Virus record (IMG/VR): IMGVR_UViG_2526164630_000028
DNA length: 17,246 nucleotides
Source: a virus
Lineage: Duplodnaviria; Heunggongvirae; Uroviricota; Caudoviricetes
Direction: 5' to 3' (one strand)
Position 1 is the stretch's first letter. Every line of letters begins with the position of its first letter. Positions 3,001 to 15,000 of this stretch are shown in pieces. A program made the position numbers.

Positions 3001-6000
3001 TATCACAAGGATAATCGGCGTGGCAAATGACATATTTTTTCCTTTGCTCACCAGTTCGATGATTAACGGAAGTTCTTCTGCTTTATGGGCAAGAGCTTTA
3101 GCCAGAATTTCTTTGTCGTAATCGAGATTAAAGAACCAGCCACCGCCATTAAGCAGCCAGTGATTGACGTTTCCACGCTCTGATAAGCCATCAATCATCA
3201 TTTGCTCATGGTTTCCACGTACAGCTCTGAACCAGGGGAATGTGATTAATTCCAGGCATTCTACGTTCTCTGTACCGCGATCAACCAAATCGCCCACCGA
3301 GATAAGCAGGTCTTTTTTGGTGTCGAATCCTATCGTCTCCAGTTTTTTCATCAGGTTCGTGTAGCATCCGTGCAGATCGCCAACTACCCAAATATTTCGG
3401 TATTTGCTGCCATCAATTCTTTCGTAGATATTCATGCAACCTCACTTCTGCTGTTTCGCAGTTTTTTAAGTTTCTGTTGATACTCCGCCTTGATGGCCCT
3501 GCACTCTTCGACAGTCCAGCGATAGCGGTTATGGTTTGATTCGATTTCCTCTACTGCTTCCTGCCCGATGCGGCTAATCAGTTCGACGCGATACGGAACG
3601 AGATTTCCGCTTTTGTGCTGGTTGCACACCACGCATTGCTTGTGAATATTGCGTTCATCAAATCGGAGTTGAGGTGCCGCAGCAGTTGTCCGGTAATGTC
3701 CGGCATCCCACTGAGCAGACGTGAGCGTTCCGCACGAGATACATGGTAAGTCGCGGTCTCTTTCTCTGATGAAGGCGTTTACGGCTTGTTGGGCTTGTTT
3801 AATCCAGTAACTGCGGGGCTTTAAGGCGAGTTTTTGAATCTTAAGTTTATCTTTCTGTTTCTGCTCCTCTCGTCGTCGTTTCTTCTCTGCTGCTTTTTCC
3901 GCTTTTTCGCGTTCTTTACTTCGTCGTTCGAGTGCTATCCTGGTTCCACAAATCTCATTACACCAATATTGATTTTGATATTTTGGTATAAACCATTCAT
4001 TGCAACATTTACATTTCCTTCGATAGATTCGCATAAGTGCTCCTTTCGTTGCCGGAAAAATCACCGTAATACTTATCTCGGGCTTCTTCAGCAACTAGTA
4101 CCGCTAACTCCAGATCATCAAAGCATCCGAAGTGTTTACTCTTGCCATGGAATCCTAGCCTAACATTCCATTTTTTCTGTCGTTTGTGCCAAGTAACCCC
4201 TCTGCAACCTGATTTGCTATTCTTTCGGATCCTTATATTTCTTGAATTTTCTATTGGCAGGCATTCTCTTAAATTTTCTGGCCTATTGTCGGTCCTAATT
4301 CCATTAACGTGGTCAATTTGACCAGCAGGCCAACGATTATGAGTTATGTAAAAAACTAAGACGTGAGTTTTATATCTACGCCCATCTATCATGATCATTG
4401 AATAACCGTTGGAATCAAAAGTTCCAGCAACACTATTTAATGCTATCCTTCCCTGAGTGGGAACTTTCCATCTAAATACCCCGGTAGATTTATCGAAACT
4501 TAGTAACTCAAATATCCTTTTAACAGTTAAATCTTCTCTTTTACGGTTACATCGTCTTCGCGCTGGTTTAGCCATCGCCTTCTTCCTCCGTAATGGTTTT
4601 CTGAATTTGGCCACCTGAACAGAGCTCACCAAAGCTATGGATGTCGGTATTTCCACAATACCAAGATGGCGAAAATAACTGCATGATAAGCCTCAGGGAA
4701 AAGGGAAGACACTACCCCCGATAATTCAGAAACAAATCGAAATACATGAACTAAAGAAAAAATCACAACAAATAGAAATAGAAATATTAAAACAGACCAC
4801 CACATTCCTGATGTCATACTCACTAAACAATTTTTCGACAACATGGTAGCTCATAGCACGTTATCGTGTAGACACCCTCTGCTACGTATTCGGTGTTCAG
4901 TGCAATATCTACAAATACTGGAAAAATCTAAAATCGAGGCAAGTTTTTAGTGATAACTATAGTTAGACTATATTGACGACCTGATGTGCTGTATGTAATA
5001 ACTAACAAAAATATTTTCCATGGGATTTTTATTTTAATGAAATGCAAAATATTTTTATCAATAGTTAGTATTATGGAAAACCATTAATTCAGGAGGAAAC
5101 TTGATTCCAAATTCAACTTCAAATAAAGGTTATGTATGCATTGACATGCAGTGTTCGTCAACCTCTGAACCAACAGCTTCTACCTCCAGCAACCGGAGTA
5201 TTAAATTAGCCGCTTCCACAAATGTATATCCGATAACAAGAAACGACTCCGAGCTCACTCTGAACGATTTTCTTGATAATAGCTCTTCTACGTCATCATT
5301 GGACTACATTAATGAATTGGGTTCTCAACTGACGTTAAATGATTTTCTTGACAAAATAAAGACAAATGAGGTGGATAGAACATGTACGGATGTGGTAATT
5401 AATATCCCACAAGAGATACAAACAAATACACAGGAAAATGATTTGTTATTATCCGATAAAAATAATTCAATATGCATTGAAATCGATGAAAGAATTACAA
5501 AAATCCTAACATGCAAGCAAAAATATCAACTGGACAGCATCATTCATGAAATTATACCAAAAGAGAATGAGAGTGCAGAAACTGTTCTCCATCTTATGAG
5601 AGTTCTGAACGATCAATATCATCAGGTATATAATCAGTCAGGATGTTTTTATAAAGCCTATATGGCCATACACAATAAAATCGAACAGATACTTCCATAT
5701 GCGTTCAGAGCCGGAGGCGGAATCAGCATTCACTTGCTCATACAGGCATTATTTTTTAATGGCGACTATAACAAATCACCTTCACAGTCTCAACAACCAT
5801 CTTTATATACATCACCTTCTCCAACAATAAATACAGAAGCATTCTTAAGTAATGTATTATCACTAGATATAACCCAGGTACGCATACTTGGTGATTTACT
5901 ATCAGCAACTTTATTTCATGCACCAACAATATTCTGTCAATATCCTAAACTAATAGATGAAGTTAAGTATTGTATAAGTAATAAAAAATAACAGGTTCGG

Positions 6001-12000: not shown

Positions 12001-15000
12001 CCGGATACATCGTGGGATGGCAGGTCTCATCATCCATGGAAACAACATTCGTGCTGGATGCACTGGAGCAGGCGTTGTGGGCCCGTCGGCCGTCCGGCAC
12101 AATCCATCACAGTGATAAAGGTTCTCAGTATGTATCGCTGGCCTACACGCAGCGGCTTAAGGAAGCCGGATTACTGGCATCAACAGGGAGTACTGGCGAC
12201 TCGTATGACAACGCGATGGCGGAGAGCATCAATGGTCTTTACAAAGCGGAGGTAATACACCGTAAGAGCTGGAAAAACCGTGCAGAAGTGGAACTGGCCA
12301 CACTCACGTGGGTGGACTGGTATAACAATCGACGATTGCTGGAAAGGCTGGGCCATATTCCTCCGGCAGAAGCAGAAAAAGCTTATTATGCTTCCATCGG
12401 AAATAATGATCTGGCAGCCTGAGTTCACAGATAAAATACTCTCCAGGAAACCCGGGGCGGTTCAGTTTACCTCTTTCTCAGGGAGTTTAGTCTCCAGGAT
12501 TCCCGGGGCGGTTCAAAAGAGCGGTGTTACTTATGCAGTTGTTTTTTTGTTGCTTGGGAAGGGCTTTATTTCTTCCGCATAAACGCTTCCATCAGCGTTT
12601 ATAGTTAAAAAAATCTTTCGGCCTGCATGAAGGGCCTTGTTGATCGCGCTTTGATATACACCGAGATCTTTAGCCGTCTTGGTTTGACCAAAGCGCATTG
12701 CATAATCTTTCAGGGTTATGCGTTGTTCCATACAACCTCCTTAGTACATGCAATCATTATCACCGCCAGAGGTAAAATAGTCAACACGCACGGTGTTAGA
12801 TATTTATTCCTTGCGGTGATAGATTTAACGTATGAGCGCAAAAAAGAAACCGTTAACACAAGAGCAGCTTGAGGACGCACGTCGCCTTAAAGCTATTTAT
12901 GAAAAAAGAAAAATGAACTTGGCTTATCTCAGGAATCTGTCGCAGACAAGATGGGGATGGGGCAGTCAGGCGTTGGTGCTTTATTTAATGGCATCAATGC
13001 ATTAAATGCTTATAACGCCGCATTGCTTGCAAAAATTCTCAACGTTAGTGTTGAAGAATTTAGCCCTTCAATCGCCAGAGAAATCTACGAGATGTATGAA
13101 GCTGTTAGTATGCAGCCATCATTCAGAAGTGAGTATGAGTACCCTGTTTTTTCTCATGTTCAGGCCGGGATGTTCTCGCCTGAGCTTAGAACCTTTACTA
13201 AAGGTGATGCGGAGAGATGGGTAAGCACAACCAAAAAAGCCAGTGATTCTTCATTCTGGCTTGAGGTTGAAGGTAATTCCATGACCGCGCCAACAGGATC
13301 CAAGCCAAGCTTTCCTGACGGGATGTTAATTCTTGTTGACCCTGAGCAGACTGTTGAGCCTGGTGATTTCTGCATAGCCAGACTTGGTGGTGACGAGTTT
13401 ACCTTCAAGAAACTGATCAGGGATAGCGGTCAGGTGTTCCTACAACCACTAAACCCGCAATATCCAATGATCCCATGCAATGAGAGTTGTTCCGTTGTGG
13501 GGAAAGTTATCGCCAGCCAGTGGCCAGAAGAGACGTTTGGGTGACAAGAAGCACAGGTATTAACAATAACTTTCATGGTGATACGAATCAGTGGCTAAAA
13601 AAGGCGACTTTAAGCCTACCCAGAAAGAGGTTGACCAAGCTATTACTCGCTTGAAAAAAGTAACTTTTAGCGGAGTTACATGGACCGGAAGTGAGGGACG
13701 AACCCCAATCTGGTTTAAATTGGATCTCAAAGCTTTTGATGAAATTGGCAACCCAATCACAGGCATAAAATTTATGCTTCACTGGCGTCCTCCTATCGTT
13801 GAAGGGGTGGATATAGTGAAGATTTCATTTGTGATGTTTCTTCATGACAGGCGCATTTACGCGCTTGACCCGTACCCTGCGGATAACAAGCCACACCGTA
13901 ATAAATCTATAGTGAACCATCCAGATTTTGTTGAGGTGGCTCGAGGTCCTCACTATCACATGTACTTCGAATCAGCTGGGGAAGAAATTGCACTTAAGCT
14001 TGAAACGAACATCAAGCCAGATGATTTTTTTGGCTACTGGAATTATTTTTGCGAGGCGCTTAATATCATATATGAAGGCAGCCCACCTTTACCTAATCAA
14101 GATAAATCAGGTCAGCTATCATGGGAAATGTAACGTGTTCAACAGTCATATCTAAGCTCGGGTTTGAATGCCACCCAATGAGCGACACGTTGCTGCGCGT
14201 TATTAGTCCCTTCACATACTACGATGATTGTGAGCAGATAAGTGTATTCGTTCAAGAGATGAGTGGTCAGTATAGGGTTACAGACTACTGCGATACATTG
14301 ATGAATATTGAATCACGCGGCATCCACCTGACTAAAAAGAAAATTGATCTAATCAGGTCATCGCTCGCTTCGCAAGGAATTTCATTAAATGACTCTGGAG
14401 AGATATCTGCGTGGGCAGATGAGTCGTCCGTTGGACAGGTAACTGCAAATGTTATTCGTGGTGGGATTCTTGCATCCGCCCAAACTGCTGATTGGTATGC
14501 TGAGATCAAAGACGATAAGTTCGAAAAATGTGTAATCAGCTACTTAAAATCAGCAGGGCTTGGGAAGCGACTAGCTTTAAAGGAAAAAGTGAAAGGTATT
14601 AGTGGGCATAACATTACTGTTCCGTTAACGCTAAGGAATGAGTCTCGACTAATACCACCAAAACGCGGGTTTACGGTAAGCCTTGCCAGCAGTAAGGGAT
14701 GGAATACTGCCCACTCAACAGTTGGGAAGATTGTTGACTTAAGTCAGGTCGTTCCTGACATAAACAATAGATTTGTAATAGTTGACAGCGATGGGTTAAC
14801 ACCTGAGCTACAGCAACTATCACTACTATTTAATGATACCGCACGAGTGTTGCCATTCCATACCAGAGACTCTTGGATTGAGTCTCTGGTAGCCTAGAAA
14901 AACCCGGCCACCGAGCCGGGTTTTCTTTGCCTCACGATCCCCACACCTAATAACACCATAACCAATTGTATTTATTGAAAAATTGATAGATACAACTTGC

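Follow-up and report, generated by a model that had tools for sequence, protein, structure and literature searches.

Single-base deficits in long A/T runs of a lambdoid prophage contig from Escherichia coli DEC11C: very probably homopolymer under-calls and not gene decay

Described lambdoid phages and the DEC11C contig

The early region of phage lambda follows the order Q-nin-P-O-cII-cro-cI-N-kil, and the same order, reversed relative to the lambda map, is found in the 17,246-nt stretch of DNA considered here (the window), which is the whole of contig AIGX01000062.1 from GCA_000250155.2, the draft assembly of Escherichia coli DEC11C that was published in 2012 as part of the diarrheagenic E. 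coli (DEC) collection. It holds the early region of a lambdoid prophage in which four genes, encoding the repressor cI, the replication initiator O, a NinI-type phosphatase and the product of an AT-rich island open reading frame (ORF), are interrupted by five frame breaks. These breaks are very probably homopolymer under-calls of an early draft assembly and not signs of gene decay.

The genes O, P, ren, cro, cI, ea10, cIII and kil share 95-99% nucleotide identity with lambda (95.6% for cro-cI and 97.5% for ren-P-O against NC_001416). The window differs from lambda in the replacement of rexAB by a pair of genes for a 180-aa protein and a DUF1828 protein, and in the disruption of cII and nutR by an insertion sequence (IS). 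Over positions 1-3950, which include a Q82-like Q, lpxR and an N-terminal remnant of the lambda Q gene, it is about 99% identical to phage 434, and with Shiga toxin (Stx) phages it shares an HNH gene and a 590-aa AT-rich ORF in the nin region. Insertions of IS629/IS1203 in lambdoid prophages of enterohaemorrhagic and Shiga toxin-producing E. coli resemble that of the window in the 1310-bp element, its orfA and orfB, and its terminal repeats, and in the complete genomes C7 and RM12761 IS3-family insertions lie between cro and cII or next to O; in the window, unlike these, the full copy abuts an inverted 51-bp IS end and 304 bp of phage DNA have been lost. Complete E. coli genomes and phage records each match at most two thirds of the window as one continuous piece, so that it has to be regarded as a mosaic. 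Biologically, this is an ordinary prophage, a mosaic of lambda, 434 and Stx-phage parts, which an IS629-like insertion has disabled.

Five frame breaks in four genes

The preliminary description of this DNA had placed frame breaks at five A/T runs. All five runs are present as written, and the ORF list shows that each splits a gene into fragments lying in shifted frames. The genes concerned are the following:

2771..3435, minus strand: NinI-type serine/threonine phosphatase, broken at T6 3035-3040 (an A run on the coding strand); pieces 2962-3435 (157 aa, Metallophos) and 2771-2920 (49 aa)
5101..6871, plus strand: AT-rich island ORF of 590 aa, within the nin region and opposite to it in strand, broken at A6 5983-5988 and A6 6626-6631; pieces 5101-5991, 6045-6641 and 6734-6871
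10140..11038, minus strand: replication initiator O with ori inside, broken at T5 10577-10581 in the AT-rich tract beside the iterons; pieces 10454-11038 (194 aa) and 10140-10628 (162 aa; 124 aa in the source annotation)
12832..13544, plus strand: lambda-immunity repressor cI, broken at A6 12902-12907; pieces 12832-13005 (57 aa) and 12951-13544 (197 aa)

The identification of lambda-like cI, O and NinI phosphatase on both sides of the breaks was correct. If one base is added at each site, the reading frames are again continuous: the phosphatase gene then encodes 221 aa, the island ORF 590 aa, O 299 aa and cI 237 aa. The repaired products match their closest intact relatives, found in contigs or loci of other assemblies (here given L numbers; some are IMG/VR loci), at 219/221 residues for the phosphatase (L059), 589/590 for the island ORF (L059), 298/299 for O (L065) and 237/237 for cI (L069), i.e., they are 99-100% identical with 0-2 amino-acid differences each. 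The sole mismatch of the island ORF stems from the choice of A as the inserted base at 6626; with G instead, the match is 590/590. As one-base repairs yield full-length, near-identical proteins, no other lesion is present in any of these genes: nonsense mutations and larger deletions are absent, and amino-acid changes are not in excess.

At four of the five sites the closest relatives carry a run one base longer, namely T7 (or T6A) in the phosphatase gene, A7 at 5983 in the island ORF, T6 in O and A7 in cI. Alignment with lambda itself gives A7 in cI and T6 in O, not the lengths seen in the window, and T6 in O is also found in L001, L011, L062 and L065. Where cI is intact, its A7 run gives the heptamer A-AAA-AAG in frame. 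The fifth site is of another kind. Relatives have AAAAAGAG or AGAAAGAG at 6626, the closest ones AAAAAGAG, and the window has AAAAAAG, so the lost base is a G beside an A5 run, its loss creating the A6; the earlier claim that all the breaks lie at shortened A/T runs thus holds for four sites out of five. In the relatives the frame is open at all five sites, and the out-of-frame arrangement is not kept, which argues against a programmed frameshift or a phase-variable tract.

The break in O maps about 30 nt from lambda iteron 4. Like that of lambda, the ori (10607-10691) contains four iterons, against six in AU6Stx1, and this explains a length difference of 39 nt. For the island ORF no family was found in Pfam or PADLOC searches; 251 complete E. 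coli genomes carry it, as do AU6Stx1 and other Stx phages.

Run-length spectrum against close relatives

The window diverges by 1-4% from lambda, 434, AU6Stx1 and the best complete genome, too far to tell error from polymorphism. Closer references were found by exact-protein look-ups with the intact neighbours NinG, P, DUF1828 and LpxR, and 15.3 kb could be aligned to one of them. The window differs from these relatives, which come from other assemblies, by only 0-5 substitutions per region; it is one base short at nine sites and has one extra base at a single site:

1-2977, against L073: no substitutions, two deficits (A8 to A7 at 364 and at 1578)
2714-7030, against L059: five substitutions, five deficits (T7 to T6 at 3035, A6 to A5 at 5007, T6 to T5 at 5026, A7 to A6 at 5983, AAAAAGAG to AAAAAAG at 6626)
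9066-11154, against L065: two substitutions, one deficit (T6 to T5 at 10577)
12516-17246, against L069: one substitution, one deficit (A7 to A6 at 12902) and one surplus T at 17130

All five deficits of the preliminary description are therefore real differences from the relatives, and its count rises to nine with four more in non-coding A/T runs:

364..370: A7, A8 in L073; terminator region downstream of Q (phage 434 has an annotated terminator at the corresponding position)
1578..1584: A7, A8 in relatives; just upstream of the lpxR start
5007..5011: A5, A6 in all relatives; upstream of the island ORF
5026..5030: T5, T6 in relatives, including 27/27 IMG/VR loci

The deficits depend strongly on run length. 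None of the A/T runs of 3, 4 or 5 nt is shorter in the window (0/411, 0/124 and 0/53, respectively), and the shortened fraction is 3/30 for runs of 6 nt, 3/11 for 7 nt and 2/3 for 8 nt, which amounts to 8/44 for runs of at least 6 nt against 0/588 for the shorter ones (Fisher p = 3e-10). All eight run-length changes are losses (p = 0.008), and none of the runs of at least 6 nt is extended in the window. Eight of the nine deficits are such shortenings, the ninth being the G lost directly after A5. No G/C run is altered; only 10 of these reach 5 nt, so the bias towards A/T is not significant (p = 0.33). Among A/T runs of at least 5 nt, deficits fall in 5/76 coding and 4/28 non-coding runs (p = 0.25), a parity that purifying selection against real mutations would not produce. 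Where the match is best, the window shows about as many single-base losses as substitutions.

Comparison with lambda, 434, AU6Stx1 and ECO2947 had pointed to two further deficits (16336 and 17073) and one surplus (1325); these were set aside as real lineage polymorphisms, because L069 (for 16336 and 17073) and L073 (for 1325) share the state of the window. The sole single-base surplus lies at 17128-17130, just upstream of gam, where the window reads CCATTTT and all references CTATTT; it combines a substitution with an extension of T3 to T4 and may be either real or an error.

Assembly errors of Roche 454 sequencing are A/T-biased, rise with run length and produce artificial frameshifts, especially in AT-rich DNA (PMC3277595). 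The window agrees with the profile given by Luo et al. in 2012 (PMC3277595) in the single-base errors in A/T runs, the length dependence and the split genes. It departs from this profile at 6630, where a lone G next to a run is lost, and in the recurrence of some of its sites across assemblies, which would make the errors context-specific and not random.

Distribution of the short alleles

The same sites were surveyed in complete E. coli genomes with queries of 161-171 nt (161 nt for cI) and in other assemblies, taken irrespective of sequencing platform. The cI A6 allele occurs in none of the 618 complete genomes that carry the segment, 38 of which are identical to the window apart from the one-base gap. 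Among IMG/VR loci A7 is found in 118 and A6 in two, L213 and L273, which have different cI backgrounds; L273 also shows a loss from A7 to A6 in cro and one from T7 to T6 elsewhere. In this early draft prophage the cI and cro changes lie at positions 2929 and 3288, the cro change being at the 3' end of the gene. To judge from L273, the cro run (T7 on the plus strand at window 12541-12547) is also error-prone; in the window it is of full length.

For O, no exact match to the window allele was found in complete genomes, and in IMG/VR the run is full in 127 loci and short in two (L019 and L115). The truncated 194-aa O is on record only in assemblies of the DEC2 clone from the same project (AIFB, AIFC and AIFD, with the source names DEC2C and DEC2D) and, among Logan runs, in the low-numbered SRR067926, SRR070451 and SRR094171, the last with 8 samples; it is found in at least three phage backgrounds. 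L062 and L065, which come from other projects and have the same O flanks, carry T6. Of the deficits of the window, L019 has just those in the phosphatase gene and O, in addition to T-run indels peculiar to it.

At island site 5983, A7 is present in 249/251 complete genomes and in 26/26 informative IMG/VR loci. The two genomes with A6 are those of the O145:H28 strains RM12761 and RM13516, in both of which RefSeq annotates the island ORF as two proteins; their Newbler assemblies were built on 454 Titanium reads, supplemented by Illumina and PacBio circular consensus sequencing (CCS) data (PMC4032123). The phosphatase allele of the window had no exact match in complete genomes, and the run is of full length in 40/40 IMG/VR loci. 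Full-length runs also characterise all of the close relatives L059, L062, L065, L069 and L073.

The carriers of short alleles do not nest: the DEC2 assemblies have only that of O, L019 those of the phosphatase and O, RM12761 only that of island site 5983, and L213 and L273 only that of cI. Therefore, the short alleles were not inherited together. That unrelated early drafts are short at the very same runs is how a platform error tied to sequence context behaves, and unexplained frameshifts in other DEC drafts have been flagged as possible sequencing errors (PMC5592225).

Two Logan datasets bear on the cI allele. Contigs of SRR096454 reproduce the A6 of the window both in cI and at 5983, so that this is probably the strain's own run and the source of the data. 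Three of the four ends of two SRR096454 contigs fall inside A/T runs of at least 5 nt (5026, 6504 and 12544), one contig beginning exactly at the T run 5026-5030, as would be expected if reads disagreed on run length; one contig also differs from the GenBank contig by GGG versus GG. A contig of ERR499296 (L006) has no mismatch to window 12516-14944 at aligned bases and carries A7 in cI. It lacks four other bases, including 2 nt in cI, and has a different nutR-like sequence where the window has the IS, i.e., it belongs to a related but different phage. Being noisy and from a phage without the IS, it was given little weight as an independent witness of A7.

Origin of the deficits

The nine deficits are very probably base-calling or consensus errors of a homopolymer-sensitive, pyrosequencing-type chemistry in the 2012 DEC11C draft. 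In such chemistries a single light or pH signal gives the length of a run, long A/T runs are under-called, and the assembler passes the short call into the consensus; gene callers then cut intact cI, O, phosphatase and island ORF into fragments. We infer both the sequencing platform and the state of the raw reads; the DEC collection was presumably sequenced with 454 Titanium chemistry. That the deficits are length-dependent, confined to A/T runs, all losses and spread over coding and non-coding DNA alike speaks for this reading, already proposed in the preliminary description, as does the existence of near-identical DNA without the short alleles. The artefact is of a known kind and is not a biological feature, and in the real strain cI, O, the phosphatase gene and the island ORF are most probably intact.

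Several facts weigh on the other side. The site at 6626 is a single G loss and not a run shortening. The prophage is truly defective through the nutR/cII deletion, which makes real neutral decay plausible in principle, and real strand slippage, too, favours long A/T runs. Deficits are absent from a second DEC11C contig, although its long A/T runs number only four, all of them of 6 nt. The three DEC2 assemblies call T5 in O identically and otherwise show one homopolymer indel difference in 12 kb; because the same call appears in three assemblies so nearly free of indels, an error in O must be systematic and context-specific. The island A6 persists in the two finished O145:H28 genomes. Most SRR096454 reads would seem to carry the short call, since the Logan assembly gives A6 in cI and at 5983. 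Finally, ERR499296, the only other dataset with an identical immunity region, is itself noisy.

Foremost among the alternatives, unlikely as it is, stands a mixture in which most of the deficits are artefacts and one or two are real, the best candidates being the G loss at 6630, which is not a run-length change, and the recurrent T5 in O, which reappears in several assemblies and in at least three phage backgrounds. The presence of the island A6 in two finished genomes for which Illumina and PacBio CCS data were also available would fit as well. The carriers of the O allele are, however, all early-era drafts or runs, and T6 is found in L062, L065 and 127/129 IMG/VR loci; the O145:H28 genomes rest on a Newbler 454 backbone; and the drop of a single base right after a long run is a known error of flow chemistry.

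It is decidedly improbable that slippage truly produced all five frameshifts, by neutral accumulation in a cryptic prophage which the IS629-like insertion and deletion had already disabled. An IS and an IS fragment do stand in place of 304 bp with nutR/tR1 and most of cII, homopolymers are natural hot spots of frameshift mutation, and SRR096454 agrees with the window on A6 in cI and at 5983. Yet nine losses stand against about eight substitutions in about 14 kb, with two losses and no substitution in the first 3 kb, a ratio far above natural indel-to-substitution ratios, which, if genome-wide, would mean thousands of frameshifts. Every change is a loss, the broken genes have otherwise suffered nothing that decay would bring (nonsense mutations, larger deletions, further amino-acid changes), the cI short allele is absent from complete genomes with identical flanks, and the alleles lack the nested distribution that descent would give. 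Loss of cI should also be harmful. The leftward operon, with its lambda-type operators (OL/pL), N, cIII and kil, is intact and has one substitution in 4.7 kb relative to contigs with intact cI. Lambda Kil is toxic when expressed, and a truly cI-null prophage with intact pL-N-kil should express kil constitutively to the detriment of its host; a second prophage supplying repressor in trans could relieve the loss. The decayed cryptic prophage that the preliminary description offered as the alternative is borne out in part, on other grounds, namely the IS-linked deletion.

Still less probable are hypermutable contingency tracts, which, if true, would let the prophage switch its immunity and replication genes off and on reversibly. 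The same runs are indeed short in unrelated strains (O in DEC2, L019 and L115, cI in L213 and L273, the island ORF in O145:H28), and intact cI has its in-frame heptamer. Runs of 5-7 nt are, however, short for efficient phase variation, the short alleles occur almost only in early drafts and together with other homopolymer deficits in the same contigs, and the 618 complete genomes include no cI short allele. The collapse of two similar prophages into one consensus is hardly credible: the O-P-ren module is present twice in DEC11C, AIGX01000006.1 (L061) encoding an identical P, but only this module is duplicated, 8/9 deficits lie outside it, and a mixture of copies would give substitutions or ambiguous positions, not clean losses in long A/T runs.

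If the deficits are read as under-calls, their value is practical and not biological, as a warning about deposited gene fragments. As the preliminary description had anticipated, naive ORF calling mislabels intact genes here, and the deposited annotation lists the split pieces: a 197-aa 'repressor protein CI', a 124-aa 'replication protein', a 157-aa phosphatase and a 296-aa hypothetical protein. Such fragments have spread into protein databases. Genes are split by the same short alleles in other early drafts, and one allele is also found in two finished O145:H28 genomes, so that prophage decay, loss of immunity or pseudogene load inferred from such assemblies would mislead.

The IS629-like insertion

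The genuine structural defect of the prophage is the IS629-like insertion with its deletion of nutR and cII. The features of this segment are:

11071..11154, minus strand: 3' remnant of cII, last 27 codons and stop, 84 nt
11155..12464, plus strand: complete IS629/IS1203-like element of the IS3 family, 1310 bp, recognised by its terminal repeats and ORFs
11209-11535 and 11535-12422: orfA and orfB of the element, with transposase Pfam domains
12465..12515, minus strand: 51-bp left-end fragment of a second IS629-like copy, inverted and abutting the cro end

The element is 95-99% identical to IS3-family copies in E. coli genomes, and the 51-bp fragment, once reverse-complemented, differs from the IS left end at a single base. 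Where the window has 11155-12515, L065 and L069 have 304 bp of cII-tR1-nutR, and the alignments of L001 and L065 end at 11154, inside cII. The lost 304 bp comprise the rest of nutR including boxB, tR1 and the 5' two thirds of cII; the phage remnants flanking the IS are the 84 nt of cII and 15 nt past the cro stop. In view of this IS-linked loss of nutR/tR1 and most of cII, the prophage is probably defective. The exact cro/IS junction had no match in GTDB species representatives or complete E. coli genomes. It is the assembler that linked the two halves of the contig through the IS; a chimeric join was considered unlikely, as O-cII' and cro-cI stand in the correct order and orientation for one prophage, which argues that the linkage is real.

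Gene order and other features of the contig

The G+C content of the window is 43.6%, and long A/T runs are numerous. The gene order opens with the end of a TfpB-like gene, and the arrangement at 435-2774, where a Q82-type Q, lpxR and the lambda-Q remnant follow one another, is that of phage 434. The remaining features are:

435-1124, minus strand: Q82-type Q, preceded by the TfpB-like gene end
1600-2559, plus strand, opposite to its neighbours: lpxR moron (lipid A deacylase)
2704-2774: N-terminal remnant of a lambda-type Q, 70 nt, fused upstream of the phosphatase gene
after the Q remnant: NinI phosphatase, NinG and HNH genes, then the 590-aa AT-rich ORF on the other strand
beyond the island ORF: NinE, Dam, NinB, two small ORFs, ren, P and O
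beyond O: the cII remnant, the IS3-family element, cro and cI
12531..12731, minus strand: cro, intact, lambda-type, with a 66-aa Cro Pfam match
12732-12831: lambda-type operators OR1-OR3, read directly from the sequence
13591-14897: the genes for the 180-aa and DUF1828 proteins, at the place of rexAB
right end: N, a 149-aa ORF, ea10, cIII, kil and the start of gam

Compared with the lambda operators, OR1 and OR2 are identical and OR3 has one change.

The gene for the 180-aa protein, which has a weak match to DUF6978, lies directly downstream of cI and overlaps that for the 258-aa DUF1828 protein. The pair shows weak matches to components A and B of the PADLOC candidate defence system PDC-M24 (E = 4e-4 and 6e-7) and is widespread, the exact DUF1828 protein being present in 372 blocks of the searched collection.

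Compared with window 9089-10246, AIGX01000006.1 encodes identical P and ren, from which it follows that DEC11C has a second lambdoid prophage sharing O-P-ren. This contig begins inside O at the equivalent of 10246, and an extra T in its first few bases looks like a contig-end error. Between the HNH gene and the island ORF, at 4730-4790, there is a GAAATA/AAATAG tandem repeat whose copy number varies among relatives, the window being 6 to about 60 nt shorter than L052, L011, L004 and L001.

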